The notes beneath the pieces were generated by a model that was not told the DNA's origin, did not search any database, and saw only the letters and a list, made by a program, of their open reading frames with translations. From IMG/VR virus record IMGVR_UViG_3300042527_000500, positions 1 through 57,977 of that record: a stretch of DNA of 57,977 nt. The stretch is one strand, 5' to 3'. Source of the DNA: a virus (taxonomy: Duplodnaviria > Caudoviricetes). Made by a program: the position numbers and the translations under genes. Positions within the stretch are counted from its first letter, which is position 1; each line of letters starts with the position of its first letter. Positions 15,486 to 56,778 of the stretch are shown piece after piece.

Positions 15486-15494
15486 AATATTAAA

Positions 15495-15850
15495 TGGAGG
15501 CGAGGGGAGTCGAACCCCTGTCTTATCATAATCTCAAAAATATCTTCTACAAGTTTATTTCATTCATAAGTTAAATCAGAATATAGAACGAACAAGATTT
15601 TTCTGATCTTACCAACTGCTCTTAACCTACAACCCGTTGGATATTGTAAGTGCAGAGGGATTTAACGACAGACTTTTGATCGCTACCCTCATTCGCAATC
15701 GCAGTCTGTTACTGCCCGTTTTAGTTAGGCAGCAAGGGCTAACTGAGTTTCGCCAGTTAAAGCGTTTTAATCGACTTTTAAAGTGGCCTGTCGATCAACC
15801 ACTACTTGCTAATATAATTTTAATTATGTAATCGAATCCGTTACGCCCCC
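15495..15850 (-). ncRNA. ssrA: tmRNA, tag (A)GETQLALAA
   Basis: 5' GGGGGCG..GGATTCGA, 3' GACAGGGGTTCGACTCCCCTCGCCTCCA with G3.U70; pk1; tag ORF 15754-15725 after TTAACT. Confidence 0.95.
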
Positions 15851-42197: not shown

Positions 42198-42270
42198 AGC
42201 AACAAGCGGGATTCGAACCCGCGACAGCCAGATTGGAAATCTAGTACTCTACCAACTGAGTTATTGTTGC
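42198..42270 (-). tRNA. tRNA-Gly(TCC)
   Basis: GCAACAA..CTAGA-TT-TCC-AA-TCTGG..GCGGG-TTCGAAT-CCCGC-TTGTTGC-T. Confidence 0.92.
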
Positions 42271-42276
42271 ATTAAA

Positions 42277-42347
42277 AGCAAGAGACGGGACTCGAACCCG
42301 TATAATCAGGGTTGAAACCTGCCACTCTGCCATTGAGTTACTCTTGC
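42277..42347 (-). tRNA. tRNA with TCA anticodon (opal suppressor, Gly-type body)
   Basis: GCAAGAG-TA-ACTC-AATGGCA-GAGT-G-GCAGG-TT-TCA-AC-CCTGA-TTAT-ACGGG-TTCGAGT-CCCGT-CTCTTGC-T. Confidence 0.8.
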
Positions 42348-42358
42348 TAAAGCATAAC

Positions 42359-42407
42359 CCCCAACTACGCCTCATACTATTTGGAGATAATATGAGACGC
42401 ATTGGGG
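42359..42407 (-). other. long hairpin upstream of the tRNA pair
   Basis: CCCCAA-TGCGTCTCATATTAT/ATAGTATGAGGCGTA-GTTGGGG. Confidence 0.6.
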
Positions 42408-42423
42408 AATACTTTTTAGTTAC

Positions 42424-42765
42424 TCACTGACAGTTACAACCACCAGAAACAACAGTTGTACGATTAACCAGACGACGCCTTACTGGTTGATACTTAACAA
42501 CTTCCTTGGTTGCACTTCCACAACAATCAGTTGCTACAGTTTCAGTGCAACAACGATTAGGAGTAACAATAGCGACCACTGAACGTACAGGGGCAATTGC
42601 TACTACTGCACGAACAGGAGCAACAACAACTTCCTTAGTAATATTAACAACCTTACGAACTGGTCTGACTAGTGGTGCTGAACAAACTCCATTAGCACAT
42701 TCACCAGCATAAACTGAACTAACCATACCGACCACAATCATAAGAGCAATAACAAAATTCTTCAT
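42424..42765 (-). CDS. secreted Cys/Val-rich protein, planctomycete style
   Basis: Signal peptide ..VYA-G; CANGVC, repeated (A/R/Q)PVR motifs, C-terminal GGCNCQ. Confidence 0.7.
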   Translation of the reverse strand: MKNFVIALMIVVGMVSSVYAGECANGVCSAPLVRPVRKVVNITKEVVVAPVRAVVAIAPVRSVVAIVTPNRCCTETVATDCCGSATKEVVKYQPVRRRLVNRTTVVSGGCNCQ

Positions 42766-43449
42766 AGAATCTCCTTTGTTAAAAAAAAGTAAAATTGCCA
42801 AATCCATTTGACACTACATAACCATATGGTATAGTAGATTAATCGGCCTAACCGTCAAGGTGATAATCCATTTTCAAGTATCTCTTTAATGATGGCATTG
42901 TATAATATTTCATTGGGATCAAAAGAATCTTTAGATTTGTTCTTATCGAGATATTCTTGAGCAACATCAGTATAATCTCCATCAAAAACAAACTGTTTAT
43001 CTTTTGGATAATCCACAATACTGCCAGCTAAAGACAAGCTTATCACCAGTGGTTTAAACATAATAATTTCTTAGTGATAATTAATGTCGGATTTAATTTC
43101 TGTTATGCAGAAATCCGATTGAAGACAAGTTTATCACGGGATTAGAATAGTATTATTAGAAACGTCCCAGATTAGGATTAGAAACCAAACCAAGAATCAC
43201 GGCTGAACAGATAAAAAATCCTAGAATAAAACACCTCAGTTTCTAGTTACATACTTGTTACAACCACCACACCACCATTATACCACACTCCACCCTTGAC
43301 GCAAGTGCTTTGTTTATAAGGACTTACATCAAATAGTGAGCGTTGGGTAAAAAAACGTTATCTTGACACACAATCCACAGAGTCATATATATTATGCAGG
43401 GCGCAAGGATATAATACTTATTATACTAATAAACTCTTAGGAGAACTCT

Positions 43450-43891: not shown

Positions 43892-44100
43892 TTTTCAAAG
43901 GGCTCCGTTAAAGATCAGACTACTCTTAAACTATTAATAAGGGGCCAAAATATTCTAGAATAGATTATGAGACTATTTTATTCCACCATATTACTATTCT
44001 GCACCATGACTCTATTGTACCATACGCTACTATTTGCCGCAAGGTGTTGTATTTCATAGAGTTACGAAAAGATCAACTGTTTACTATTGTTGGATTTTAC

Positions 44101-44138
44101 GCTGACTAACAGCAACGACAGCAAATCCGGTGGATTAG
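44101..44138. repeat. family-B 38-bp element, copy 1
   Basis: GCTGACTAA-N12-CAAATCCGGTGGATTAG. Confidence 0.7.
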
Positions 44139-44295
44139 ATAGGACAAAAGAATAGGAATAAGATATATTGTAATAAGACTCATACTAAAAATATCAAATA
44201 TCATTCTTGTTCTAACTCCTTACAGCCACAGCACTTACATCCATTGTATCGTCATTCCAGCCATTCGTCTATAGGGTGGTTGTGAGATACTTTCG

Positions 44296-44375
44296 CTAAG
44301 TCTAGTGGCCACAAGAGTTTGCGACAAAGTTTCGCGGCCCCGTTCGTCGTAAAGTCTTACGCATCAACGGTTTAG
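44296..44375. repeat. 80-bp four-box dyad element, copy 1
   Basis: CTAAGTCTAG-N7-AAGAGTTTGCGACAAA..TTCGTCGTAAAGTCTT-N7-AACGGTTTAG. Confidence 0.85.
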
Positions 44376-44382
44376 AATGAGC

Positions 44383-44432
44383 GGCGAAAAGCCGCCGTAG
44401 GTTATTCCCTCGTTCCCTACGACGGCTCTCGC
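44383..44432 (-). terminator. intrinsic terminator after the DUF932 gene
   Basis: AGCCGTCGTAGG/CCTACGGCGGCT-TTT. Confidence 0.65.
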
Positions 44433-44455
44433 CCACCCACCACCACGAAGGTATG

Positions 44456-45403
44456 TCAGACGGCGTTAGCGAACTCCAACGCACGATTGAGAGCCTTGAT
44501 ATTGTCGTTACCGTTAGCACCGAACCAGAGACTGTCGAGCCGATTATCGTCGGTGCGACCCTTGGCATAGTTCAGGTATTCATTGAAGCCGTTGTAAGCA
44601 GCCCACCAAGTACCACGAACATTCGTGGCCGATTGCTTCGGGCCTTCGATACGGGCCAGAATATCGTCCATGATATTACGGGTGCGAGTCTTGATGTCAC
44701 CATCGACCGTACCCTCAATACCAAGCATAGTCTTGACATATCGACGAACATCGTTCTGATTGAAATCCTTACTAGCAAGGAATCGGAACTGTTCAGCAGT
44801 AGCCTCAAACTGGACGTTGATATTATCCATAATATCGCGGACATTATCCAGATTAGTCTTGCTGGAACGAGTGTGACGAATACGAATAAGTTTACTATCC
44901 GAATGACCGTGAGCCATAGCCAGCGTGTTGACGCAGACCACTCGAATGGGGGTGTAGCCCACGCGAATAGCCGTCGTTCCATCGTGACTATTACTCAGGA
45001 GAATAAACTTGGACACTTCGTCACCGCGAACAATCTCGCTATTGTCACGGTTGAGTTGAGCCAGTACCCAGACCTTCTGGCCGCTATGGAGCGAACCGGC
45101 GGTATGGATATTGCACTCGCCAGCGTCGAGAAACGGCTGGAACCAATCAAACGCATCCCGATTCTGAAGCGGGGTATAACGCGGCCCGACTACGCCAAGG
45201 ATGCTGCCGTCAGTCTTGCGATACGTCGCACGATGGGACACGGGAACACCGTCAACGGTCTGCAAATCCTTCAAGCCAACTTCCCAATCCAGACCAGCGG
45301 ACACGATAGCATCTTCGACGCCAATATCGGCTTCGACCTGATTGCCCAGACCGTGCCAAGGGGTAGCACCAACGAACATCATGTTTTCAACAGCAGCAGG
45401 CAT
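44456..45403 (-). CDS. DUF932 family phage/plasmid protein
   Basis: TPWHGLG, AGLDWEV, LGVVGPRYTPLQN, LSNSHDGT, TPIRVVCVNTL, GTWWAAYNGFNEY. Confidence 0.9.
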   Translation of the reverse strand: MPAAVENMMFVGATPWHGLGNQVEADIGVEDAIVSAGLDWEVGLKDLQTVDGVPVSHRATYRKTDGSILGVVGPRYTPLQNRDAFDWFQPFLDAGECNIHTAGSLHSGQKVWVLAQLNRDNSEIVRGDEVSKFILLSNSHDGTTAIRVGYTPIRVVCVNTLAMAHGHSDSKLIRIRHTRSSKTNLDNVRDIMDNINVQFEATAEQFRFLASKDFNQNDVRRYVKTMLGIEGTVDGDIKTRTRNIMDDILARIEGPKQSATNVRGTWWAAYNGFNEYLNYAKGRTDDNRLDSLWFGANGNDNIKALNRALEFANAV

Positions 45404-45445
45404 TTGTAATCTCCTCAGTGGTAGGTTTCTAACTTCGATACGCTG

Positions 45446-45473
45446 ATTCTACACTAGATATCGGCACTGTCAA
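45446..45473 (-). promoter_or_regulatory. nested promoter
   Basis: TTGACA-16-TAGAAT; GCCGATAT. Confidence 0.8.
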
Positions 45474-45502
45474 CCGCCAAACTTGCGAAAAAAAATAATC
45501 GT

Positions 45503-45583
45503 CACAAGTCCTTACGCCACAAGACTTTATGGCAGCGGCGGGCGCCGGGATTCGTTCTAAACTCTTGGCGGACAAGGGTTTAG
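45503..45583. repeat. 80-bp dyad element, copy 2
   Basis: CAAGTCCTT-N7-AAGACTTTA..CTAAACTCTT-N7-AAGGGTTTAG; overlaps the PRTase stop. Confidence 0.85.
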
Positions 45584-46057
45584 GAACGGGAATCCAAAAT
45601 CACGCTCAAACAGTTTAGAAGTTTCTGTGTTGTATGCACATTCTTCGGGCAAATACATATAAGCACCAACACACCTTGCTCTTGGGTATTCGTCTTTAAT
45701 CACATTCTTAATATGCTTTATCGTGGTTCCAGAGCAAACAAGATCATCAACAACCACATACCTAAAAGGAGAAGCCCCCTCAGTTCTAAACTCACTGTAT
45801 CGTTTTTCATCTTTCCTTACAATGATAATGTTTTTGTTTAGCAACTCTGCAATCTGGCCTACAACCATTAATCCGCTTACGCCACAGCAGGCAATACTAT
45901 CAAACTGATCCGCTATCTTTCGCAGATCACAAACAGTTTTGATTACAATCTTTGTACGAATCTTATGATTCAGAACATGGCAAGTGTGGCTAGCACCTTG
46001 AATAATGCCGTGTTCAGTTTTTCTAACATCTTCAATAGGAGTATTCATAACATTCAT
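45557..46057 (-). CDS. type I phosphoribosyltransferase
   Basis: YVVVDDLVCSGTT PRPP loop; IIIVRK. Confidence 0.85.
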   Translation of the reverse strand: MNVMNTPIEDVRKTEHGIIQGASHTCHVLNHKIRTKIVIKTVCDLRKIADQFDSIACCGVSGLMVVGQIAELLNKNIIIVRKDEKRYSEFRTEGASPFRYVVVDDLVCSGTTIKHIKNVIKDEYPRARCVGAYMYLPEECAYNTETSKLFERDFGFPFLNPCPPRV

Positions 46058-46060
46058 AAA

Positions 46061-46146
46061 AACGGACGGTACGATTTGAACGTACTAAGAAGAGAAAGAA
46101 AGGATAATCCTTATAAAAGATACTTGTCCCACCAAGTTGCGTCCGT
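46061..46146 (-). ncRNA. tRNA-like RNA with pyrimidine-rich variable region
   Basis: ACGGACG/CGTCCGT acceptor, ACTTG/CAAGT arm, TT-TAT-AA loop, GTACG-TTCAAAT-CGTAC T-arm. Confidence 0.55.
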
Positions 46147-46156
46147 TAGGAGAGAA

Positions 46157-46318
46157 TCACTCATCGATAAGTTCTTCAGTTAGATTATGATAATCGTATT
46201 CCCAAGAAGAAACATAGGTATCTTCTTCAGAATCTTCCTCAAAAATCATGTCATCATCATACAACTCATCAATATCATCGCCGTTGTAGAAATAATCACG
46301 ATCATCATAGTATGGCAT
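46157..46318 (-). CDS. 53-aa hyper-acidic protein
   Basis: MPYYDDRDYFYNGDDIDELYDDDMIFEEDSEEDTYVSSWEYDYHNLTEELIDE; AAGGAG SD; promoter 46340-46368. Confidence 0.7.
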   Translation of the reverse strand: MPYYDDRDYFYNGDDIDELYDDDMIFEEDSEEDTYVSSWEYDYHNLTEELIDE

Positions 46319-46369
46319 AGTCTCTTCTCCTTTGACTCTATTCTACACCAAACAATCAAACTTGTCAAG

Positions 46370-46442
46370 TGGGGCCTGTGGGACTCGAACCCACGACCAA
46401 AGGTTTAAAAGACCCTTGCTCTACCAACTGAGCTAAAGCCCC
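46370..46442 (-). tRNA. tRNA-Lys(TTT)
   Basis: Canonical cloverleaf, CT-TTT-AA loop. Confidence 0.93.
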
Positions 46443-46451
46443 ATTAGCGAC

Positions 46452-46480
46452 ATTATATCTTATCGGTTGTTCGTTGTCAA
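46452..46480 (-). promoter_or_regulatory. nested promoter
   Basis: TTGACA-17-TATAAT; CTAA-17-ACCGATAA. Confidence 0.8.
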
Positions 46481-46494
46481 GACCTTAGTTTTTC

Positions 46495-46532
46495 GCTGAC
46501 TACTGCCATCCTCGCCAAATCGGTAGGATTAG
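46495..46532. repeat. family-B element, copy 2
   Basis: GCTGACTAC-N12-CAAATCGGTAGGATTAG. Confidence 0.8.
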
Positions 46533-46604
46533 GTAATCCACGGGTGTTTTTGTTTGGGCAGAACACCATAAACTGCCAGACCGTCAGCCTCCGAGACTTC
46601 AAAG

Positions 46605-46678
46605 TAGGGCGTGAAGGAGTCGAACCTTCCTTTTGAATACCTTATAAGAGTATTTGCCACTACCGGCGGCAACGCCCC
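46605..46678 (-). tRNA. tRNA-Ile(TAT), atypical D-arm
   Basis: GGGGCGT/ACGCCCT-A; AATACT-CT-TAT-AA-GGTATT; GAAGG-TTCGACT-CCTTC. Confidence 0.75.
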
Positions 46679-46689
46679 ATAGTCAAGCC

Positions 46690-46718
46690 ATTCTATACTA
46701 GATATCGGCACTTGTCAA
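46690..46718 (-). promoter_or_regulatory. nested promoter
   Basis: TTGACA-17-TAGAAT; TCAA-17-GCCGATAT. Confidence 0.8.
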
Positions 46719-46737
46719 TACGATTCTTGAACTTTTC

Positions 46738-46816
46738 CTAAGTCCTTATCGACAAAGAGTTTACGACAAAAACGGCCGCGGGTATTTGACGTAAAGTGTT
46801 ATCTACCAACGACTTA
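46738..46816. repeat. 80-bp dyad element, copy 3
   Basis: CTAAGTCCTT-N7-AAGAGTTTACGACAAA..TTTGACGTAAAGTGTT-N7-AACGACTTA. Confidence 0.9.
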
Positions 46817-46818
46817 AA

Positions 46819-46903
46819 CGGAATCTACAGGATTCGAACCTGTGGAAGATTTCTCTTCGGCGGTTTAGTAAACCGCTGCCTTAAACCACTCGGCCAAGAT
46901 TCC
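46819..46903 (-). tRNA. tRNA-Ser(ACT)
   Basis: Long variable arm, G73, GCGGT-TT-ACT-AA-ACCGC. Confidence 0.85.
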
Positions 46904-46907
46904 TAAA

Positions 46908-46979
46908 CTCTGTGAGTAGGACTCGAACCTACAACCGGGCGGTTAACAGCCGCCAGCTCTACCATTGAGCTATCACAGA
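46908..46979 (-). tRNA. tRNA-Asn(GTT)
   Basis: Canonical cloverleaf. Confidence 0.93.
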
Positions 46980-46983
46980 ATAG

Positions 46984-47054
46984 TTCCGGGGCTAGGATTC
47001 GAACCCAGACAAAGAGAACCAAAATCTCTAGTGCTACCGTTACACTACCCCGGA
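46984..47054 (-). tRNA. tRNA-Gln(TTG)
   Basis: Canonical cloverleaf. Confidence 0.92.
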
Positions 47055-47060
47055 ATATAA

Positions 47061-47132
47061 AGCCGAAAGAGGGAATCGAACCCCCGACAGGTTGTTTACA
47101 AAACAACTACTCTACCACTGAGTTACTTCGGC
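47061..47132 (-). tRNA. tRNA-Thr(TGT)
   Basis: Canonical cloverleaf. Confidence 0.92.
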
Positions 47133-47148
47133 AATACCACTATTATAT

Positions 47149-47349
47149 TCAATAGTCATAATCCTCGCAAGCCCTACGCTTTTGAGCAGAACGAGTACGT
47201 TGACGCTTGGGACGGTTATCGAACACGGTATCCCGATGTTCCTGATGACCCTGACGCATTTCCCAGGGCATAACCTTCTTGATTTTGATAATGTTGCGTC
47301 GAGGACGCATATCGTCGTTGTTGTGGAGGGTAATCATACCATTGACCAT
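47149..47349 (-). CDS. small basic hypothetical protein
   Basis: GHQEHRDTVFDNRPKRQRTRSAQKRRA. Confidence 0.5.
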   Translation of the reverse strand: MVNGMITLHNNDDMRPRRNIIKIKKVMPWEMRQGHQEHRDTVFDNRPKRQRTRSAQKRRACEDYDY

Positions 47350-47578
47350 TTTCGTGTTGATAAAAAACTTTGTTTACGTTAGGATCATACGCCATTAAAC
47401 AGTATTGTACCGGATAAACTACCTTTGTCAACTCTTTTTGTTGAGCCAACTCTGGGATTTTTATATTCCCACTTTGATAATCTTTTACACCATTATAGGC
47501 CAACCCTAACAGTGCTATGATTACTCCTACCCATTGTAGCATATTTCCATTCCTTGTCAAGACCCGTTTCTCATCCAT
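47216..47578 (-). CDS. membrane-anchored hypothetical protein
   Basis: N-terminal TM segment; overlaps the previous ORF by 134 nt. Confidence 0.5.
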   Translation of the reverse strand: MDEKRVLTRNGNMLQWVGVIIALLGLAYNGVKDYQSGNIKIPELAQQKELTKVVYPVQYCLMAYDPNVNKVFYQHENGQWYDYPPQQRRYASSTQHYQNQEGYALGNASGSSGTSGYRVR

Positions 47579-47585
47579 AGAGTAT

Positions 47586-47614
47586 TTATCGGCAAAACGA
47601 TAGATCGGACTTGA
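47586..47614 (-). promoter_or_regulatory. stand-alone sigma28-like promoter
   Basis: TCAA-17-GCCGATAA with no nested TTGACA. Confidence 0.65.
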
Positions 47615-47621
47615 GAAAATC

Positions 47622-47701
47622 CTAAGTCCTTATAGATGAAGACTTTAGAGTAAATCTGGCCGCGGCCATTCGACGTAAAGTCTTATACCTCAATACTTTA
47701 C
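47622..47701. repeat. 80-bp dyad element, copy 4
   Basis: CTAAGTCCTT-N7-AAGACTTTAG..GGCCGCGGCC..GTAAAGTCTT-N7-AATACTTTAC. Confidence 0.9.
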
Positions 47702-47704
47702 AAA

Positions 47705-47776
47705 TAGCCCCAAGAGGAATCGAACCTCTATTAGATGCTTAGAAGGCAACTGTTCTATCCATTGAACTATGGGGCC
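47705..47776 (-). tRNA. tRNA-Arg(TCT)
   Basis: CT-TCT-AA loop, canonical T-arm. Confidence 0.9.
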
Positions 47777-47813
47777 GTGTTTCTATTATAGCATACCGAT
47801 TCAACGCCGCAAG

Positions 47814-48044
47814 CCCGCATGGCGTCCCATGCAGGCTATACGGTTTGATAGTTGGTTCGTATACTATCGGTAAGTTATATATTATAGTAGCCGAACCTAT
47901 TCCCGGAAGCCACTCCGGTTATCTAGTCTGGCTTGACCGCTACTATGTTGCACCCAAGGTCTGCAACGAACCCATTACGCGGGACGAATCCCGCCGCACT
48001 ATGCCTAAAATCTATTTATACTGGCATAGTCCAGTTGGTCAAGG
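47814..48044 (-). ncRNA. multi-hairpin structured RNA candidate
   Basis: About seven stems, including GCGGGA-TTCG-TCCCGC and a possible H-type pseudoknot. Confidence 0.55.
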
Positions 48045-48296
48045 TCAAGCCTCGACCGTTTCCTTCTTGGTCTTAGGGTTGGCCGCGTCACCCGCAGCCT
48101 CGGCAGTCACGCCAGTAACCCTGGCTCGCCACACCTTGTAACCCTGCTCCGAAAAACTCTTGACTTCGCCAGCCTTGACCGACGCATGAACGTCGCCCGG
48201 CAGACAACCCTCAAGACACTCACGAATGGACTCGGCAACCGCATCACGATCAAGTTCCGTAGCCACAACATCGACACTGAAAGCAAACTTCTGCAT
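48045..48296 (-). CDS. hypothetical protein
   Basis: Start MQKFAF after GGAGG; promoters at 48338-48366 and 48426-48453. Confidence 0.7.
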   Translation of the reverse strand: MQKFAFSVDVVATELDRDAVAESIRECLEGCLPGDVHASVKAGEVKSFSEQGYKVWRARVTGVTAEAAGDAANPKTKKETVEA

Positions 48297-48425
48297 GATA
48301 AAAACCTCCAAAGTAGTAAGTGAAACCAACTAAAACCATTATACCAACCAGTCATCACAGTGTCAAGTGCTAGGTCGAACTTTTTTGTGTTGCGATCAAC
48401 CAGCGTCTTGTCGTGTGATGCTGTC

Positions 48426-48453
48426 AGTATACCACTGTTATCGGCATTGTCAA
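48426..48453 (-). promoter_or_regulatory. nested promoter
   Basis: TTGACA-16-TATACT; GCCGATAA. Confidence 0.8.
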
Positions 48454-48485
48454 CCACGCTCCATGAATGTTTCTCACGATTTTCT

Positions 48486-48565
48486 CTAAGTCGTTGCGTA
48501 TCAAGAGTTTACGTCAAACCCGGGCGGCCCGCCTTGATGCAAAGTCTTATGCACCAAGGACTTAT
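48486..48565. repeat. 80-bp dyad element, copy 5
   Basis: Contains TATCAAGAGTTTA, a perfect WATCAANNNNTTR match. Confidence 0.9.
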
Positions 48566-48571
48566 GGTTAT

Positions 48572-49047
48572 TCAGTCATCATCTCGTGAAAGTTCCCACC
48601 CGGCTCCTCTTACGATACTTTTTGTAGCGATTACGTTAGTCTTCGGATCTGCACTAACATAGTCTCGATACCCTCTTTCATCAACATAAAAGTGTTCGTC
48701 GATAGTATCAAACTTATTTGTCAGTAACAAACCACTAATAGCAGCCTCAAAAGCATTTTTCTTAGAAACAATAACTTCTAGTGTGCCGCTCTTTACATAG
48801 TATTTACCCATTGTCAACTCCCTAAAGAAATAACTACGGTATTATCGTACTTAGCAAAATCTAACTCAACACCAAAATCATTATCGTCAAGAATAGATTG
48901 TAATGTTTCTTGGCTAATCAGGGTGTCAGTATTCGTACCAAAACTAACATCACTATTGCTAATAGCATCTATCACACTACCATAGTCTAACTTATTATAG
49001 TCGCAAACTTCTCGTAGGTCGAGATATGTCCAAGCATAACTTTTCAT
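48572..49047 (-). other. two small hypothetical CDS (48572-48811, 48814-49047)
   Basis: ORF track; GGAG SD motifs. Confidence 0.6.
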
Positions 49048-49204
49048 TATTCTATCTCCACAAGTTCGCCATTATCATTCTCAACTAGATTAGTATAAAT
49101 CACAATCTGTCCATCATCGTCTGTTTCAATCTCTACCCATGTAGGCATAAAGTTATTTATACTAATACGCAAATCTTCTAGTGTCATATTTTCCATTGTT
49201 ATCC

Positions 49205-49909
49205 TCAGTGTGATGGAAACAAAACGTTAGCCAAACCCTTGACGCACAGTTCGCATGATACACTACCCTTGGTCGGTGTGCAAGTGACAACGCCACGACC
49301 ACGACGGATTTCGGGGCAAGTGACAAACTTTGTCCCGTTCAGCACGACGAGTTTCGGCAGAGATTTACGCCAAGCCTCGGCCTTAGCCTTGCTACGCGGA
49401 CGCTTCGGGGCAATCTTCTCGTCGCTATCACACCATGCGAACAACTTGAAACCCTGTGCCAGTGCTTCTCCCATATCGTTATCATCGTGAACGCTGGCGT
49501 ATACATTCATATACTTTTCCAGACTCACAAGTCTATTATCATAAATATGGGTATAAAACCACATATCGGGCAGAGTCTTACCTTCGGCAAGAATACTCTC
49601 ACAAGCCCACGTTACATTAGCAAGATAGTCAAGGTCGAGACTACCATTGAGAAACCAATCGCCACGCTCATGCCAACGAATACTTTTCTTGCGACGGTCG
49701 GCATCAAGAATCATAGCCCTAATGCGATTCTTCTCAGTCACAAGATTCTGCATACCGGCCGGACGAACGCCAGGATACATTTTTTCGCTTTGCTCGGCAT
49801 AGCAGCCATTATCCAAATAGTCGCAATCGGGAGGACAAGTATCTCCAACCGGACGCGAAACAACAACGCAACCCTTGCCCAACTTTTCGTTACCGTCAGC
49901 CACTTTCAT
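49205..49909 (-). CDS. Gp88-like Cys-rich phage protein
   Basis: TCPPDC..GCYA, IRWHERGDW, FYTH, TCPE..CELC. Confidence 0.65.
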   Translation of the reverse strand: MKVADGNEKLGKGCVVVSRPVGDTCPPDCDYLDNGCYAEQSEKMYPGVRPAGMQNLVTEKNRIRAMILDADRRKKSIRWHERGDWFLNGSLDLDYLANVTWACESILAEGKTLPDMWFYTHIYDNRLVSLEKYMNVYASVHDDNDMGEALAQGFKLFAWCDSDEKIAPKRPRSKAKAEAWRKSLPKLVVLNGTKFVTCPEIRRGRGVVTCTPTKGSVSCELCVKGLANVLFPSH

Positions 49910-49933
49910 GGTTTCTTCTCCGTGTGTGCTGCT

Positions 49934-49962
49934 ATTCTACACTCATTATCGGCCAGCGTCAA
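49934..49962 (-). promoter_or_regulatory. nested promoter
   Basis: TTGACG-17-TAGAAT; CAAAGTTT..GCCGATAA. Confidence 0.8.
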
Positions 49963-49991
49963 GCAGAAACTTTGAGAAAAATCTTTTTGAT

Positions 49992-50071
49992 GCAAGTCCT
50001 TATGGATAAAGAGTTTACGTCAAATCGGGCCGCGGTGCCTTGCCGTAAAGTCTTACGGTTCAAGGCTTTGC
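49992..50071. repeat. 80-bp dyad element, copy 6
   Basis: GCAAGTCCTT-N7-AAGAGTTTACGTCAAA..GTAAAGTCTT-N7-AAGGCTTTGC; 1 nt from the upstream stop. Confidence 0.9.
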
Positions 50072-50072
50072 G

Positions 50073-50450
50073 TCATGAGAGATGTCCCTCACAACCCAAC
50101 GCTACCAGATCACGCAGCAGATTTTGAGCCGCTTCCGGCGTTTTGAGAGTGATGCTCTGCTTGGTTCCAGCCGGAGCCGGATGCCACTTGTCGTACTTCC
50201 AACCCCCAACTATGCCATCGCTCCAATCTTTGGCTTCCTTCAGCCCCCATCCGGTGTGGAGTCGAATAGCCTTGATGCAAGAAATACGATTATCCGTATT
50301 CATTCCACCAGTGATGGTCACGGTGCGATTCTGGTTCACACCCAATGCCACTTCAAAAGCGGTTACAATCTTATCGTACATATCTCCGCTCAGGCTGCTA
50401 TCGGTAGCAAGCGTCAGAGCCTCACGAACAGTCAGTTGCAGATTAATCAT
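50073..50450 (-). CDS. ribosomal protein bL12 (L7/L12) C-terminal-domain-like protein
   Basis: RISCIKAIRLHTGWGLKEAKD..TPEAAQNLLRDLVALG. Confidence 0.7.
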   Translation of the reverse strand: MINLQLTVREALTLATDSSLSGDMYDKIVTAFEVALGVNQNRTVTITGGMNTDNRISCIKAIRLHTGWGLKEAKDWSDGIVGGWKYDKWHPAPAGTKQSITLKTPEAAQNLLRDLVALGCEGHLS

Positions 50451-50941
50451 ATTCCAAAACTTTCTGTATACTTAGGGGTTATTTCGTGGATGCCGTCAAA
50501 ACTACCGTTACGCTCTTCTAGAATATAAACTTGCTTACCGTCAGTAATCAAGGTGTCATATTCTGTGCCATCCCAAATGAACTCACTATTGTCGCTTTCT
50601 CGTCGCCAGTGTGGGTCACGGATTGGATTATAAAACAACTTTTCGAGATTGTCAATAGGTAGAGATGGATAAAAATCCTTCCTCAGCATAACTTCTTCAC
50701 ATCGCACCCACCCACTAACATCATGCACACCATTCTCAAATACTTGTTTAGCCTTATTCGGCCTATTCCACAATATACAGCCCCGCATTTCTAACTGATA
50801 TTTTTTGGGGTCAACATAGTATACATCAACTGTTTCTCCACCCTGTTTAACTTTTATTTGCCAGTGCATATAATGAGCCCCGTTGCTCAAATGAAATCGA
50901 ACTTCTCCATGTAGTTTATTCTGTTTCATTTTATTCTTCAA
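50447..50941 (-). CDS. hypothetical protein
   Basis: 164-aa ORF with FYNPIRDPHW. Confidence 0.6.
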   Translation of the reverse strand: MKNKMKQNKLHGEVRFHLSNGAHYMHWQIKVKQGGETVDVYYVDPKKYQLEMRGCILWNRPNKAKQVFENGVHDVSGWVRCEEVMLRKDFYPSLPIDNLEKLFYNPIRDPHWRRESDNSEFIWDGTEYDTLITDGKQVYILEERNGSFDGIHEITPKYTESFGI

Positions 50942-51098
50942 TAATAGTATAACCAGTAGCCACAGTGTCGGCGTCAGTACCCATATTTCCCATGCTTAAC
51001 TCGTCATTAAGCCAATCAATAAACTGGTCAGCATCAAAGATATTACTAGATTCAATCACAATATTAATCTTCATTTTTGTTCTCGTAAGTGTGCTATC

Positions 51099-51127
51099 AT
51101 TATACCTTATCGGCTAAACCTTGTCAA
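51099..51127 (-). promoter_or_regulatory. nested promoter
   Basis: TTGACA-17-TATAAT; TAAA-17-GCCGATAA. Confidence 0.8.
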
Positions 51128-51142
51128 GACCTTTAAACTTTC

Positions 51143-51180
51143 GCTGACTACAGCCACCCCAGCCAAATCCGTAGGATTAG
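51143..51180. repeat. family-B element, copy 3
   Basis: GCTGACTAC-N12-CAAATCCGTAGGATTAG. Confidence 0.8.
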
Positions 51181-51275
51181 GAAAGACAAGCGTTGGGTTG
51201 AGCCATACTCGACCGCCATTTAACCGTGGCTTCTTTGATATCATTCTGCCAACGGCCCACCCACTTGTTTCCCTA

Positions 51276-51304
51276 AGTATACTTCTATTATCGGTCAGTG
51301 TCAA
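51276..51304 (-). promoter_or_regulatory. nested promoter
   Basis: TTGACA-17-TATACT; TAAA-17-ACCGATAA. Confidence 0.8.
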
Positions 51305-51322
51305 GGGTTTTCTTTAAAAATC

Positions 51323-51402
51323 CTAAGTTGTTGTGCGGCAAGAGTTTACGCCAAAAGTGTGCGGCCAGCCAAGCCGCAAAGTGTTGTGCGGCAAGGCTTT
51401 GC
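51323..51402. repeat. 80-bp dyad element, copy 7
   Basis: CTAAGTTGTT-N7-AAGAGTTTAC..GCAAAGTGTT-N7-AAGGCTTTGC. Confidence 0.9.
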
Positions 51403-51403
51403 G

Positions 51404-51619
51404 TCAAACCACCAGATCGGCGGCCTTTTCGATCACCACTTGCTCCTTCAACGTTCCGATGTTGCGGATGGTCACCTTTCGCTGGTAGCCCTCAAACACG
51501 ATTGACCCATCGGTATCCAGCGTTACATGGGCGACTCCGCTGTGGTTGCGGTGAAAGAAGTAGGTAGTCTCTCCCGGCTCGTTGAAGTCGCTCTCGATCC
51601 ACTGCTTGCTTGTTGCCAT
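51404..51619 (-). CDS. hypothetical protein
   Basis: Start MATSKQ after GGGAG. Confidence 0.6.
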   Translation of the reverse strand: MATSKQWIESDFNEPGETTYFFHRNHSGVAHVTLDTDGSIVFEGYQRKVTIRNIGTLKEQVVIEKAADLVV

Positions 51620-51782
51620 CTGTTTTCTCCCTATGCCACTTGGTAAGTTCGCCCGTTGATGGTAATCGTACCACCAAACATATCCCACGTCAACTCTTCC
51701 TTTAGAGCCTTTTTGTGAGCCGCTAGCAGAGCCTTATAGTCCTGCTTGAGTTGCTTTTCGGTCGCATTTGTCCAGATGATTT

Positions 51783-52046
51783 TCATATCAGATTTACTCC
51801 GTAGTTGCTAGACTGAAACCTATCGTCACTCATCTCCGGTTCGTCACAAGGTTCGATCATGATCGAGATTCCGTTGTGTGCAGTGAATACGTTGCGGTAG
51901 TCGCCGTCTTCCCAATCGGGCATATCGTTGCTCACTCCGTCCTGGCTCATCACCAGATTATCCGCATGGAACGTAGCCAGATCGAAGTTGCGAAAAGCCT
52001 TAACGCTAATCACCCGGTCGTGCTGAACCATCAGTACCAGATACAT
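51783..52046 (-). CDS. hypothetical protein
   Basis: 87 aa; AGGAG SD; promoter 52071-52099. Confidence 0.65.
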   Translation of the reverse strand: MYLVLMVQHDRVISVKAFRNFDLATFHADNLVMSQDGVSNDMPDWEDGDYRNVFTAHNGISIMIEPCDEPEMSDDRFQSSNYGVNLI

Positions 52047-52070
52047 AACCTCTCTCCTGTTGCTGCTTTG

Positions 52071-52099
52071 ATTCTACAGTACATTATCGGCAGTGTCAA
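52071..52099 (-). promoter_or_regulatory. nested promoter
   Basis: TTGACA-17-TAGAAT; TAAA-17-GCCGATAA. Confidence 0.8.
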
Positions 52100-52119
52100 G
52101 AGGGTTTCTTTAAAAAATC

Positions 52120-52199
52120 CTAAGTGGTTGATAGATAAGAGTTTACGTCAAATCCGGCCGCCCCGGTTCTCTCTAAAGTCTTACGCTTCAATACTTTAG
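52120..52199. repeat. 80-bp dyad element, copy 8
   Basis: TAAGTGGTTGATA is a perfect IHF-like site on the minus strand. Confidence 0.9.
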
Positions 52200-52296
52200 A
52201 TACCACCAGTAGCAATCGGCACAAAAACTCCAAAAAACCTCGTGCTTATCTAGCATATAGCACATTTCATTACAGTTACCACAATAGCAAACGTTA

Positions 52297-52832
52297 TCAA
52301 GAGTTTTCATAAACTAACTCCACATACTTGTTAACCAGTTCGCTGGTACCAATCTCATGTAGTCCAATCAACTCTTTGGCCTTATCTACATGTTTTTGGC
52401 TCGTTGTCATCATACGAGAGTTAAAAAAGTTGATAACATAAATCATAGCCTGTTCCCTAGTCATAGTCTTAGGGTCAGCACTAATCAAATCTTTGAAGTT
52501 TTTAGCCATCATTATTCCTCGTAAAATCCAACACGCCCCTCAGTTGTCCAGATTTCCCTGCCATCCTTAGATACCATTAGTCGTGGATAATCGTCAGGAT
52601 AATCCTTTGCTGGTCGTTGCGGTTTTGGCTGTCCCTCATATGGCATCCACCACGGAGCATCCATACGATCTACTATACCGGGAGTTTCTTCACAAATCAA
52701 GATATGTTCACTTACTGGATCGTCCTTATGAATCTCATATCTTCCCTGCCACACCCCAATATACTCGCCAAAGTAATAAACCTTCTGTCCGTTGATAGGG
52801 CGACGAGGCCCGAAAAAACTAATCCATTCCAT
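52297..52832 (-). other. two small CDS (52297-52512; 52512-52832, DUF551-like MEWIS..P..GQKV)
   Basis: ORF track. Confidence 0.55.
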
Positions 52833-53090
52833 ACCTATTCCTTTTGCAGATAATACTCTGGCATAATAGAACCATTTTTAGGACACACTACCAGTTTTGG
52901 CATTTGAAGGCCAAACGGCTCATGCATCACTTCGTTTGCCGCCTCATGCCACCCTATATGGGTTTCAGCAAAGTTTGGCAAAGAATACTTCTGTAGAAAA
53001 TCCCCAAACTCAAAATACGTTTCATCCTGCCAGTAGGCGAAGATAGCCTTTCATTTGATCATCGTTCATCATGGTTCTCCTTATGCTGCT

Positions 53091-53118
53091 ATTCTACCAC
53101 TATTATCGGTATTGTCAA
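53091..53118 (-). promoter_or_regulatory. nested promoter
   Basis: TTGACA-16-TAGAAT; TCAA-17-ACCGATAA. Confidence 0.8.
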
Positions 53119-53147
53119 GCGATATTCTTGAAAAAATCTTTTGTGTT

Positions 53148-53227
53148 ACAAGTCTTTATGACGTAAGAGTTTACGTCAAACGCTGGCGGCGGGCCTTGGC
53201 GTAAAGTGTTACGCTTCAAGGCTTTAC
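53148..53227. repeat. 80-bp dyad element, copy 9
   Basis: CAAGTCTTT-N7-AAGAGTTTACGTCAAA..GTAAAGTGTT-N7-AAGGCTTTAC; contains the upstream stop. Confidence 0.9.
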
Positions 53228-54392
53228 GTTTTATGACCAAAAGCCATATCGTATGCTTCCTCAATCTTTTCCAAAACCCTGTTTTGCATCTTTACAAACT
53301 GAGCATGATTGCCCCATGAAACACCAGAGTCAATATGTTCATGAACAATACTAAGCAGATAATCAAGTTCAACCTTAGTTAGTTCAAGAGTTTCAGTTTT
53401 CATCACCAACCCTCCGGCATAGGAATCTCATCAAAACCAATATAGCATATAACTTGTTCTTCATCAAGAGGAACCCATGTCTTCTCTCTGCCTGTATGCC
53501 ATTTACCCCATGCTCCATCATGCCAATCGGTAACGACAGGATATCGATAGCCAATCACACAACAAAGATATTGTCCTTCCCCAATAGGATTACCATAATG
53601 CCAGTTCATTTTGCCCTCGTAATAATCAAACACATTGTACCAGTATCACTATCGGTAAATCTCACAGTCTCATGAGGCCCATAATACCAAGCATCATTCT
53701 TTGAGAAGTTGAATACAACCTCATCAGTTGTGAGTTGAGTATCATTATACCCACCCTCATACCCAAGAGTCAATACCCGCATATCACCCGGATAGTTCTT
53801 CAACTGCTCAATCAGTTCGGAAACGGTCATTGTTCCTCTCCCTCCCATCTCTGCTCTTCCCTCTCCATCATCTTCTCAAAAATAGTTTGCCAAATCTCAA
53901 ATGGCACTATTTCTTTGAGAGGGACAGTCTTTTCTTCTTTCATTTCATTTTCCATAATCTATCTCCCATCATCCCTATAAAGCATCCACCAAGACGCAGG
54001 CATATAGCCTTCGTTAGCAAGTCGTGTGCTATGTTCTCTGGTTTCACCACACGCTCTCCAACATAAATAACGAATCTCCCAAGTATTATTCTCAGGAAAC
54101 TGCGGAAATGTCCAATATGGATCACTCATTCTTCATCCTCCGGCGGAAACAGTGTATTCCAATGATTAGGGCTAATACCAGACAACAGAATCTCACGATC
54201 ATCCGCACTAAGATGCGGAAAACAGTTTTGGATACTCTCACCGTTAATCCAGCGATTAGCATCGCTCAGTTTGGTAGTGATACTGAACGGATGATTATCG
54301 AACAGACACTCTCCAGAGAAAGTAACATCTTGTCCGTCAGCACTAACGCTACGAGTAACCCTGTCAGAAAACGCAAATCGTGTTCCAAGCAT
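53224..54392 (-). other. cassette of small CDS (53224-53409, 53403-53633, 53606-53830, 53959-54129, 54126-54392)
   Basis: Coupled ORFs; 54126-54392 has WINGESIQNCFPHLSADDREILLSG. Confidence 0.6.
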
Positions 54393-54414
54393 CTTCGTCT
54401 CTCCTTGTGCTACC

Positions 54415-54443
54415 ATTCTACACTCCTATTATCGGTTTGTCAA
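54415..54443 (-). promoter_or_regulatory. nested promoter
   Basis: TTGACA-17-TAGAAT; TAAA-17-ACCGATAA. Confidence 0.8.
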
Positions 54444-54463
54444 TAGGCTTTTCTTTAAGAATC

Positions 54464-54543
54464 CTAAGTTGGTGCAGTATAAGACTTTACGACAAATCCG
54501 GCCGCGGCAGTTTGCCCTAAACTCTTACAGCGTAAGCATTTAG
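54464..54543. repeat. 80-bp dyad element, copy 10
   Basis: CTAAGTTGGT-N7-AAGACTTTAC..GGCCGCGG..CTAAACTCTT-N7-AAGCATTTAG. Confidence 0.9.
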
Positions 54544-54767
54544 AGCGAACCCCTTATATTGTACCAGCGGAATCTTTTACGCCCCGATTCCTATAACCCA
54601 CACGGCTACCCATTGTCTGGACCGGATGGAAACCGCCCACGGAAACCTTCCTAAGATTGGTCATGAATCAATCTATCTGGCTCTTGGTGACGATTACTGA
54701 TTGTATTTTAGATAGGCCGGGACACACATACGATGGAGCGCCCAGTTACTCCGCCTATCATTTGTAT

Positions 54768-54911
54768 TGGAGAGGTTATCGGGATTCAAACCCGCCGTTA
54801 CATTATTAGCATACTAAAACCATGGTTCATATGCTAATAGGTTCACGTATCTGTTCGGTATATTTATCAAAAAGTTTGATCAGAACCCTTTGGGAACTAC
54901 CTTATAACCCC
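54768..54911 (-). ncRNA. 144-nt tRNA-like RNA (array unit)
   Basis: GGGGTTA/TAACCTC acceptor, U8A9, CGGG-TTTGAAT-CCCG, U73-CCA; inner TATTAGCATA/TATGCTAATA. Confidence 0.65.
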
Positions 54912-54920
54912 GTATTGTAT

Positions 54921-55058
54921 TGGAACGTATGTCGGGAATCCAACCCGATAGAGAGCAGCATAAGCCTTCCCATAGTCTAGGTCGGCAACCCCGTACACCT
55001 CTTAGATGCAGACGCTGTTTGCTGGACTATCTCTCTAGTAGCGGCAACTACCATACGC
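54921..55058 (-). ncRNA. 138-nt tRNA-like RNA (array unit)
   Basis: GCGTATG/CATACGT acceptor, GTAG/CTAC arm, TAGAGAG/CTCTCTA long arm, TCGGG-TTGGATT-CCCGA, U73-CCA. Confidence 0.65.
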
Positions 55059-55692
55059 AAGTTTGTATTGTCAATGCGGTGGGATTTTACCCACACTGCC
55101 CTATGGCGGTCTAACGGACGGTTGTGGTAGTACTCCCGCCAACCGCTGGCTGCTTAACGCTTAACCTACGCATTATGTTTATGACTAGACAGGCTCCTTC
55201 CTGCAACTTTCCCAGTGTGGCGATTCTTTTACACCTCTTGGCGAGTTCTCTCGTCTAGTCTTTGTATTGAAGCGGGAGTCACGCCTATCCCGCATCCCCT
55301 TTATATTATAAGTCAACCATGGCCTTATTATGTCCAATGATTGAACTGTCTACGAACTAGAGCATTTCTCTCTAGCAAGGGTTTCGCCGCCAGCGTCCCG
55401 GCGGGTTGTATTGTTAGGGACGGATGGATTCGTTTTGGGTTGTCAACAGTGTGCTATCACCTCGACCCACCACTTGACCATCTACTTCACTGCCCGCCTC
55501 CCCATCATAGCAGACGGTTTGGCATTGAGGAGTTGCTCACGCAACCTAGCAGTCCCTTTTGTTTTGTCAATGATCGTTATTTCCGTTTACTCTTAGCCAA
55601 GGCTTTGTGTCGCGTCGCGGCTAGACCGATTTTTATAGTTACCTGCCGCACGGAACAACACGGCTGAGTAAGCAACTGTAATCAACTCTTGT

Positions 55693-55721
55693 ATTCTACA
55701 CTCCTATTATCGTCCTGTCAA
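55693..55721 (-). promoter_or_regulatory. nested promoter driving the RNA array
   Basis: TTGACA-17-TAGAAT; TCAA-17-GACGATAA. Confidence 0.8.
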
Positions 55722-55751
55722 GCACTGTTCCTTGAAAAAATCTTTTTTGAT

Positions 55752-55831
55752 GCAAGTCCTTATGGATCAAGAGTTTGCGCCGAACCCGGCCGCGGCGGTT
55801 TGCCCTAAACTCTTGGTAGTCAAGAACTTAG
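55752..55831. repeat. 80-bp dyad element, copy 11
   Basis: GCAAGTCCTT-N7-AAGAGTTTGC..CTAAACTCTT-N7-AAGAACTTAG. Confidence 0.9.
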
Positions 55832-55846
55832 AGCGAACCTTTCCGT

Positions 55847-56329
55847 TTAGGCTTCTATCTCATCATCCTCAAAGAACTCTTCTAGATTATAGTCTTCCCA
55901 AATCCTTACAGGAATACTACCTTTATCAGCATACTCAGTATAAAGATCGTCGCCATCATGCCAGATACCACAAAAACACATACCCGGCTCAAAATAGGTA
56001 GCATCCACACTAAAACCCAACTTATCCAACTCCTCATACAATCCAACAGGAGGAGCCCAAGCACTATCAAACGAACAAGTCACTTGATTTCCAACTCTAG
56101 TAGCCTTCAGCCCATGCCATTCTTCTTTTTCTGTACCAACATCAGCACCAATATCCCACTTAGTTCCCCAGTTATTTATGCACCAATCATACCATCCATC
56201 ACCAATACCTTCGGGCATAGGCAGAAACTCATTACAAGCCTTACCAGCATTGTAAGCGTTCACAAATCGGTCAACCATAGCACCATCTTCATGCTCAACG
56301 GTCAACTTGTTCAAACACCAGTTTGGCAT
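55847..56329 (-). CDS. DUF1281/YubB ferredoxin-like domain protein
   Basis: MPNWCLNKL, WYDWCINNWGTKWD, FDSAWAPP, YFEPGMCFCG. Confidence 0.85.
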   Translation of the reverse strand: MPNWCLNKLTVEHEDGAMVDRFVNAYNAGKACNEFLPMPEGIGDGWYDWCINNWGTKWDIGADVGTEKEEWHGLKATRVGNQVTCSFDSAWAPPVGLYEELDKLGFSVDATYFEPGMCFCGIWHDGDDLYTEYADKGSIPVRIWEDYNLEEFFEDDEIEA

Positions 56330-56336
56330 ATTTTCC

Positions 56337-56743
56337 TCAGTTATTGCAGGGAATAGACTTTTCCACACACTTTTCCAACATCTTTTTCATAATCAACCCA
56401 TGAAAGATTCTCTCGGCCATCATAATAGTCTCAGCCCGCACAGTAGCAGGCACAGACCGCATTTCGGCCACACCCACAATCGTTTGGGTAAATACCATGA
56501 TTTCGGCCATCATCTTATCATGTTCGGTCGCACAAGCAATCATTTTTCTTTCCTTATGATTTCAATATCCACCACCGGAAACCAACCACTCCAACCATCT
56601 TGAATGTTTCTCAAAAGAATAGCCGCTTCTCCCTGCCAGCACGGTGCTTCCTTTTCTTCCTGCTCAACTTCCCACAAGCCAGGATGTCGTTTCAAACGCT
56701 CTTTTGTCCACTTGCGAGCGTTCTGTTTTGCTTTCACTTCCAT
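56337..56743 (-). other. two small CDS (56337-56543, 56540-56743)
   Basis: ATGA-coupled ORFs. Confidence 0.55.
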
Positions 56744-56749
56744 AATGCG

Positions 56750-56778
56750 ATTCTACTACTTCTATTATCGGTTGTCAA
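56750..56778 (-). promoter_or_regulatory. nested promoter
   Basis: TTGACA-17-TAGAAT; CAAAGTTT..ACCGATAA. Confidence 0.8.

Follow-up and report, generated by a model that had tools for sequence, protein, structure and literature searches.

The tRNA pair and its surroundings

The DNA stretch analysed here, called the window throughout, is the whole of the IMG/VR record IMGVR_UViG_3300042527_000500 (57,977 nucleotides, nt), whose genome completeness is estimated at 42% by CheckV. It stems from a large freshwater phage, and the group of this phage is well populated yet uncultured. On its minus strand, at 42277-42347, lies a 71-nt transfer RNA (tRNA) gene with the anticodon UCA, which would read the opal stop codon UGA; it encodes no CCA, is clearly glycine-derived judging by its alignment with the tRNAs of related phages, and is referred to below as tRNA(UCA). 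All the features around it are on the same strand. A 6-nt spacer, UUUAAU (42271-42276), separates it from the resident tRNA-Gly(UCC) gene at 42198-42270, called by ARAGORN and scored at 70.3 bits by Rfam, with the acceptor stem GCAACAA/UUGUUGC, U73 and a T run after it. The tandem arrangement of the two genes, which had been proposed in an earlier note made from the letters alone, is thus confirmed. On the other side, a spacer with an inverted repeat (42348-42423), seen in an alignment with relatives, leads to a small Cys-rich open reading frame (ORF) at 42424-42807, which has a signal-peptide-like N-terminus and no Pfam family and ends in TGA. This ORF also holds PVR-rich repeats, its cysteines are clustered, and its homologues stand upstream of tRNA-Gly in many relatives.

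ARAGORN places the UCA gene at 42276-42348 (-) and labels it tRNA-SeC. With the Rfam tRNA model RF00005, 42277-42347 scores 63.6 bits (gathering score 29) over model positions 1-71, that is, at full length, and the minimum-free-energy fold is a cloverleaf. The acceptor stem GCAAGAG/CTCTTGC contains G1-C72, C2-G71 and A3-U70 and is followed by the discriminator U73; the D arm, ACTC-AATGGCA-GAGT, has a stem of 4 base pairs (bp), with U8 and A9 before it and G26 after; the anticodon arm, GCAGG-TTTCAAC-CCTGA, exposes the 7-nt loop UUUCAAC with U33; the variable loop is UUAU (4 nt) and the T arm is ACGGG-TTCGAGT-CCCGT. The set of universal tertiary nucleotides is complete (U8, A14, G18G19, A21, U33, G53, U54U55C56, A58). 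Hence the cloverleaf reported in the earlier note, including its UCA loop, its first two acceptor pairs, U73 and the short variable loop, is upheld by ARAGORN, Rfam, the sequence and the fold alike.

The anticodon (positions 34-36) occupies 42313-42315, A36 at 42313 being the change from the UCC of the phage family. The anticodon arm as a whole (42306-42322) carries two further derived changes, G27 (42322) opposite A43 (42306) and C38 (42311), and the G27·A43 mismatch leaves only four Watson-Crick pairs in the stem. The glycine identity set consists of U73, G1-C72, C2-G71, G3-C70, C35 and C36. In tRNA(UCA), U73, G1-C72 and C2-G71 are present as they are in the family's tRNA-Gly(UCC) genes, and so is C35. 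In place of G3-C70 there is A3-U70, which is also found in most family Gly(UCC) tRNAs (acceptors GCAAGAG and GCAACAA), and position 36 is A, the very change that makes a UGA reader.

Two other kinds of tRNA with this anticodon have to be considered. Bacterial selenocysteine tRNAs (tRNA-Sec) have a long variable arm, a 6-bp D stem and an 8/5 arrangement of acceptor and T stems, and the tRNA-Trp(UCA) of genetic code 4 has a G73 discriminator on a Trp-type body. In tRNA(UCA) the variable loop is only 4 nt and the D stem only 4 bp long, and the eighth acceptor pair of the ARAGORN call is a flanking A:U that is present around ordinary family Gly tRNAs too. As for the Trp type, the discriminator is U73 and the similarity to the family's Trp(CCA) tRNAs is low. 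Both types are therefore excluded, as had been argued before.

Descent of tRNA(UCA)

With the protein adjoining the tRNA cluster (44456-45403), 80 related IMG/VR loci were retrieved. To trace the descent of the gene, all 677 tRNAs of the window and these loci were considered, each distinct sequence being aligned once to tRNA(UCA). The 13 highest-ranking matches are without exception tRNA-Gly(UCC). The first of them, from locus L071 (12755-12827), shares 62 of 71 bases with a score of 49, and its acceptor stem, U73 and D arm are identical to those of tRNA(UCA). By isotype the maximum scores are 49 for Gly, 24 for Thr, which is the best non-Gly type, 22 for Asp and 20 for Trp, the last being the best of 15 distinct family Trp(CCA) tRNAs. 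The resident neighbour, which shares the acceptor GCAACAA with L001 and L008 and belongs to another Gly sub-lineage, resembles tRNA(UCA) less; the likeness that the earlier note had pointed out does exist but is limited, a global alignment giving 52 identical positions, and other family Gly tRNAs come much closer.

The 18 distinct family Gly tRNAs all have the loop YUUCCAA, all read UCC and all have A38, and in the alignment, read by eye, positions 27 and 43 can pair in every one of them. The two known UCA copies, that of the window and that of a diverged contig, L081, have UUUCAAC, G27·A43 and C38. Compared with L071 the anticodon arm has thus undergone three changes: U27G, C36A, which makes UCA, and A38C. 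In the T stem, pair 50-64 is A-U in L071 and C-G in tRNA(UCA), so that both sides differ and pairing is kept. Together, these alignments make it clear that tRNA(UCA) derives from a tRNA-Gly(UCC) of the phage family itself, and the glycine type that had been assigned from identity elements is borne out beyond these elements by descent.

This also bears on the amino acid that would be inserted. Since C35 and A36 would be offered to the host tryptophanyl-tRNA synthetase (TrpRS), tRNA(UCA) might insert tryptophan and also read UGG, replacing a missing tRNA-Trp(CCA). Such a tRNA is indeed absent from the window and present in 26 of the 80 related loci, and the accessible text of Borges and colleagues states that in E. 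coli tryptophan is attached to TGA suppressor tRNAs and that TGA-to-Trp is seen in phages of standard-code hosts (10.1101/2021.08.26.457843). We regard this as quite improbable: U73 stands where G73 would be expected, the acceptor stem is that of the family Gly tRNAs, and the Trp score is 20 against 49 for Gly. Moreover, close relatives without tRNA(UCA), for example L001 and L004-L006, also have no tRNA-Trp in the fetched stretch, and this indicates no specific replacement.

Recurrence of the gene and probable route of insertion

The 2-kb stretch around the tRNA pair turns up in 20 runs (lake water or freshwater) that belong to 19 studies, and five of the runs are possible sources of the record itself; none of the listed runs holding it is an RNA run. 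Two runs from different studies, X6 and X10, were used to check the anticodon. The X6 contig covers 42243-42602 with 0 differences from the window, and on the X10 contig (6878 nt) differences are listed at 42192 and 42385 with none between them; the X8 contig (17 differences) was left out of the anticodon evidence and X14 has no cover over tRNA(UCA). A scan of metagenomes gave a single match, L081 (1328 bp), which is diverged and repeats both the tandem pair and the anticodon loop, in the order tRNA(tca), a 5-nt gap in ARAGORN coordinates, and tRNA-Gly(tcc).

The anticodon is hence real and not a mis-assembled TCC. That the gene is an artefact, namely an error in a true tRNA-Gly(UCC), or else a selenocysteine tRNA, can be given almost no credence, even though its homologues read UCC and the ARAGORN label is tRNA-SeC: the two contigs are identical to the window over the gene, L081 has the same loop, and nine positions, not one, separate tRNA(UCA) from its nearest Gly tRNA, while the short variable loop, the short D stem and the shared A:U pair speak against selenocysteine. 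The earlier note had named homologues with variable anticodons as a sign that would tell against a UGA reader. All 18 distinct family homologues do read UCC. That UCA is nevertheless found unaltered in another genotype, and a diverged one, speaks against both error and decay.

Between the window and L081, tRNA(UCA) differs at 1 of 71 positions (A49G, turning an A-U pair into G·U) and tRNA-Gly at 0 of 73, and 44 of 280 aligned flank positions differ (upstream 5/99, downstream 39/181). Compared with all flanks, the conservation of tRNA(UCA) is significant (Fisher p = 5e-4). Downstream in L081 the next gene is replaced, and homology comes back at 77%.

The resident tRNA-Gly(UCC) is syntenic with the tRNA-Gly of relatives. 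In close relatives the Cys-rich ORF is followed by ~ 85 nt, with a hairpin and a T run, and then by tRNA-Gly(UCC), so that at the place of the spacer 42348-42423 they have a different hairpin with its T run and no second tRNA. In the window and in L081 the ORF is followed by another hairpin, by tRNA(UCA) and then by the resident Gly gene. The closest relative, L001, has 96-100% protein identity on either side and the same resident gene bar one mismatch, whereas the sequence that precedes this gene is unrelated. As read from these alignments, an extra Gly-type gene is placed beside the resident one. Given that tRNA(UCA) is closer to the Gly gene of another sub-lineage than to its neighbour, recombination between related phages appears more likely than a recent local duplication.

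Proposed function and points against it

We consider that tRNA(UCA) truly is an opal suppressor derived from a glycine tRNA, though probably a weak one, and put the probability of this at roughly 55%. According to this reading, a family tRNA-Gly(UCC) would have been copied beside the resident Gly gene, either through duplication or through recombination with the copy of a relative, and the anticodon of the copy would then have changed to UCA. Co-transcription of tRNA(UCA) with tRNA-Gly is likely, and the transcript would probably be processed and completed by the CCA-adding enzyme, which is needed because no CCA is encoded. The host glycyl-tRNA synthetase (GlyRS) would most likely charge it, since G1-C72, C2-G71, U73 and C35 are kept, but poorly, since C36 is lost. 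Once charged, the tRNA would read UGA in competition with release factor 2, and its efficiency in inserting glycine would be low to moderate. The benefit may lie in one or a few UGA codons outside the window being read through, or else a general low-level read-through may be tolerated.

The points that weigh against this reading concern the tRNA itself, its rarity and the stop codons of the window. A36 removes a major glycine identity element, and the tRNA may be charged very poorly. With A38C, the A36-A37-A38 motif needed for the N6-isopentenyladenosine (i6A37) modification is broken, and decoding may weaken. A stop-reading tRNA is found in 0 of the 80 related loci and in 0 of the 5 complete relatives, which are those records among the related loci that are complete genomes (159-244 kb, two of them with terminal repeats); outside the scanned loci, the tRNA-model matches in these five genomes are only Ser(act), Leu(taa) and Ile(tat). 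Because of this absence, tRNA(UCA) is a rare and possibly short-lived state. Scans of IMG/VR with exact patterns, one for the 3' half and one for the anticodon arm with the anticodon left open, gave no match, and BLAST of tRNA(UCA) against cultured phages gave no homologue, only weak partial matches at E 0.004 or worse; the annotated ones among these were several tRNA-Gly, one tRNA-Leu and one tRNA-Glu. A wider BLAST query matched cultured phages only via the neighbouring Gly tRNA. Furthermore, compared with the upstream flank alone, which consists of the end of an ORF and a hairpin, the conservation of tRNA(UCA) in L081 is not significant (P about 0.13).

These observations would also suit a near-silent, redundant tRNA-Gly paralogue that has drifted to UCA, is charged or used too little to have an effect, is harmless and persists beside a selected tRNA gene. 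With the canonical tRNA-Gly(UCC) 6 nt away the copy is not needed to decode glycine codons, charging and modification may suffer from A36 and C38, and the window offers neither a target for read-through nor an adapted stop-codon use. We hold such a paralogue to be possible but do not favour it. Against it, the fold of tRNA(UCA) is fully intact with all tertiary nucleotides present, and the contrast of 1/71 with 44/280 differences is found between genotypes that differ by a gene replacement, with the lone change in the tRNA keeping its pairing. The three derived changes all fall in the anticodon arm and are the same in both genotypes, and the genotype is present in lake-run contigs of several studies. 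In addition, a suppressor derived from E. coli tRNA-Thr (tRNA-Thr2) reportedly becomes more efficient in nonsense suppression with a G27-A43 mismatch, as stated in the accessible part of a paper that cites Komine and Inokuchi 1990 (PMC13092985), and G27·A43 is a mismatch of this kind.

Stop-codon use in the window

Among 119 crude gene calls, TGA is the commonest stop, ending 63 of them (TAA 45, TAG 11; on the coding strand). This share of 53% compares with a median of 44% and a range of 18-68% in 73 related loci. As had been claimed, TGA stops are common and often overlap a start codon: 35 of the 63 lie in ATGA, and in 16 of these a called gene starts at that ATG. The TGA-ending genes are without a closer TAA or TAG back-up (median 16 codons against 19 for TAA-ending genes). 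With half of the genes ending in TGA and no near back-up stops, an efficient suppressor would extend about half of the phage proteins. In-frame TGA is absent from long genes such as those for rIIA (901 codons) and the ligase (459 codons), and taking away any of the three stops raises the ORF cover over the window by a similar amount.

In order to find TGA codons that might be read through, every stop-to-stop frame containing TGA was compared with 160 related loci and with G001, a complete relative (the record of locus L010) that is collinear with the window over 22-58 kb, and a stop-free match of at least 20 residues on each side was required. In this screen of the window no coding-frame TGA was aligned to a sense codon, and only off-frame or antisense frames of known genes were returned. 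A first tblastn screen had been swamped by conserved off-frame ORFs. Two candidate read-throughs, 55850-56752 and 42672-43070, did not hold up when inspected, most relatives aligning only from just before the 'MPNWCLN' motif of the window protein or stopping within a few codons. The window thus uses the standard code. The view that recoding is not genome-wide accordingly holds for the window, which is about 42% of the genome. The search for phage-encoded factors that the earlier note had called for was also run, and no release factor, GlyRS alpha subunit, class-II core or TrpRS/TyrRS (tyrosyl-tRNA synthetase) domain was found in the window.

Two in-frame TGA-AAT-ATG junctions had been put forward as possible read-through fusions. 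They do stand at 8205-8197 and 32324-32316, and a third, TGA-ATT-ATG, is found at 1766-1758. A fusion at 32324-32316 is rejected: relatives without the tRNA end the upstream protein at the same '...RKWTQFG-stop', and their downstream gene differs or is elsewhere. At 1766-1758, the codon in 30 relatives with spanning matches is TGA in 14, TAA in 13 and GAT in 3, and relatives that match both genes separately have them in different frames in 32 cases and in the same frame in 12; this fusion is rejected as well. For 8205-8197 no homologue was found. As far as the relatives allow, then, the in-frame junctions appear to separate independent genes. At 54126-54128 (-), a TGA separates two small ORFs that adjoin in frame, and this TGA is conserved in all three aligning relatives (L024 and L028 among them); the two ORFs are probably ordinary coupled genes.

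The functions encoded in the window are early and middle ones, and the late genes lie outside it. The tRNA could therefore be the decoder of a local code change, in which in-frame UGA codons mean glycine in late or structural genes of the unseen 58% and the tRNA acts late in infection, in the way of the suppressor tRNAs of TGA- or TAG-recoded gut phages. Such a division is known, recoded phages having standard-code replication genes, recoded structural and lysis genes and suppressor tRNAs according to the accessible part of Borges and colleagues (10.1101/2021.08.26.457843), and the completeness of 42%, the early and middle content of the window and the conservation of tRNA(UCA) in two genotypes would agree with it. 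It is unlikely nonetheless. In the related loci of at least 8 kb, the late regions have an ORF cover of at least 0.83 under code 11 in 79 of 79 (median 0.97), and the coding density of G001 under the same code is 0.91; no TGA-recoded late genes were found in these 79 loci. The same text places stop depletion before recoding, whereas TGA is the commonest stop here, and, in the portion accessible, it names only TGA-to-Trp and TAG-to-Gln for phages that differ in code from their hosts (10.1101/2021.08.26.457843). The lack of release factor and synthetase genes in the window also speaks against it. Since late modules diverge fast between relatives, falling from 100% identity to 74% and below, no late module can be assigned to the UCA-bearing genotype.

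A related idea, that tRNA(UCA) marks the first step of a UGA-to-glycine code change in a standard-code host, seems to us doubtful. In the accessible literature such a reassignment is described only for code-25 Patescibacteria and their phages. The suppressor would have been made from the phage's own tRNA-Gly through the three anticodon-arm changes, among them the 27-43 mismatch with its possible gain in suppression, and would serve one or more in-frame UGA codons of late genes. Were this true, it would have come before TGA stops were depleted, which is not the order of events proposed for gut phages.

Other features of the phage and its relatives

Among the protein families of the window are rIIA, rIIB, an ATP-dependent DNA ligase and an endonuclease, and it also encodes a RuvB-like ATPase, a thymidylate synthase, a transfer-messenger RNA (tmRNA) and a Pistol ribozyme. 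ARAGORN finds 12 tRNAs and the tmRNA, all on the minus strand. The tmRNA (15492-15850, -) scores 123.8 bits in Rfam and has the tag peptide GETQLALAA. It is also present in all five complete relatives and hence is a family trait; since all five are without the suppressor, a link between tmRNA and suppressor was rejected. The Pistol ribozyme (RF02679; 47973-48035, -; 55.7 bits against a cut-off of 34.5) lies between tRNA-Arg and the next ORFs.

Two further tRNAs are on the minus strand, a tRNA-Ser with the anticodon ACU (A34) at 46819-46903 and a tRNA-Ile with the anticodon UAU, an AUA reader, at 46604-46678, the latter present in 29 of the 80 related loci. A34, unmodified or modified to inosine, is unusual in a serine tRNA of bacterial systems. 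Here tRNA-Ser(ACU) is the common AGY-type serine tRNA of the phage group, being found in 60 of the 80 related loci, with Ser(gct) in only 20. The G+C content steps at about 44 kb from 31-38% (1-44000) to 44-45% (44001-56000), where the conserved tRNA-cluster region starts.

In the complete relative G001, 6 of the 10 large proteins scanned have no PHROG family at E 1e-5 or better, and five of these six come from a block of large plus-strand genes, 1-63000 (+); the virion module of the phage group appears to be very divergent from those of described phages. The family-B DNA polymerase of G001 is split between ORFs 75780-77381 and 78014-79639 (-), about 630 nt apart, and could be a split gene or contain an intervening element.

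Comparison with known systems and significance

A cellular counterpart is the tRNA-Gly(UCA) of the Absconditabacteria and Gracilibacteria, which use genetic code 25 and were reportedly described in this respect by Campbell et al. in 2013. Like tRNA(UCA), this tRNA is said to carry UCA on a glycine-type body with U73, G1-C72 and C2-G71. It is a cellular tRNA of organisms in which UGA is sense throughout, whereas the present one is a phage gene within the standard code and has A3-U70 as the family Gly tRNAs do. A single change from UCC to UCA is also said to have turned a glycine tRNA into an opal suppressor in the glyT class of E. coli, reportedly in the work of Murgola and co-workers. Those were mutants selected in the laboratory; here a natural allele is found in wild phage populations, with G27 and C38 in addition.

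Stop-reading tRNAs are known in phages. The cultured Agrobacterium jumbo phage Atu_ph07 uses the standard code and, according to the accessible text of its description, has a UCA suppressor tRNA next to 267 UGA stops (PMC6102473), so that it resembles the present phage as a large tRNA-rich phage with tRNA(UCA) and abundant UGA stops. Host and habitat (a freshwater lake) are different here, and descent from the phage's own tRNA-Gly(UCC) can be traced base by base, which sets the present case apart from what that text relates (PMC6102473).

The patescibacterial phage RSA-ATP1, in turn, encodes a tRNA-Gly-sup(TCA), which the part of the paper available calls a first for patescibacterial phages, and it uses code 25 like its host (PMC13059738). 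It shares with the present phage a phage-encoded glycine-type UGA reader. There, 39 of 65 ORFs contain an internal UGA (PMC13059738, same part), whereas none was found in the window and TGA is its commonest stop. Because tRNA(UCA) derives from the tRNA-Gly(UCC) of a standard-code phage family, its origin is likely to be independent of the RSA-ATP1 tRNA.

For gut phages, the accessible portion of the study by Borges and colleagues reports that suppressor tRNAs are frequent in recoded phages, that stops are depleted before recoding, with 4 of 146 genes ending in TGA in a cited relative, and that in one standard-code relative of such phages a TGA suppressor was acquired, 'potentially preceding code change' (10.1101/2021.08.26.457843). 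Suppressor tRNAs in large phages of standard-code hosts are common to both situations. The changes described in that portion are TGA-to-Trp and TAG-to-Gln (10.1101/2021.08.26.457843), whereas the present tRNA is glycine-derived and TGA ends 53% of the crude gene calls. Our literature searches found no paper on a glycine-derived UGA suppressor in a standard-code phage, and such a tRNA in a phage of normal code is unusual.

Suppressor tRNAs are proposed tools of stop-codon recoding in phages. As far as the accessible parts of the literature go, published cases in standard-code hosts concern Trp (UGA) or Gln (UAG), and glycine UGA readers are those of code-25 bacteria and of one phage. The locus described here provides a datable natural example of how a suppressor is made: one can see from which gene family it came, which three bases changed and where it was inserted, and relatives that have tRNA(UCA) share one habitat with relatives that do not. 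If the tRNA has no activity, it illustrates cleanly how tRNA genes turn over in the tRNA arrays of phages. If it is active, an opal suppressor would be compatible with half of the genes of a phage ending in UGA, which would bear on how much read-through is tolerated and on whether the gain of a suppressor can precede the depletion of the stop codon that it reads.

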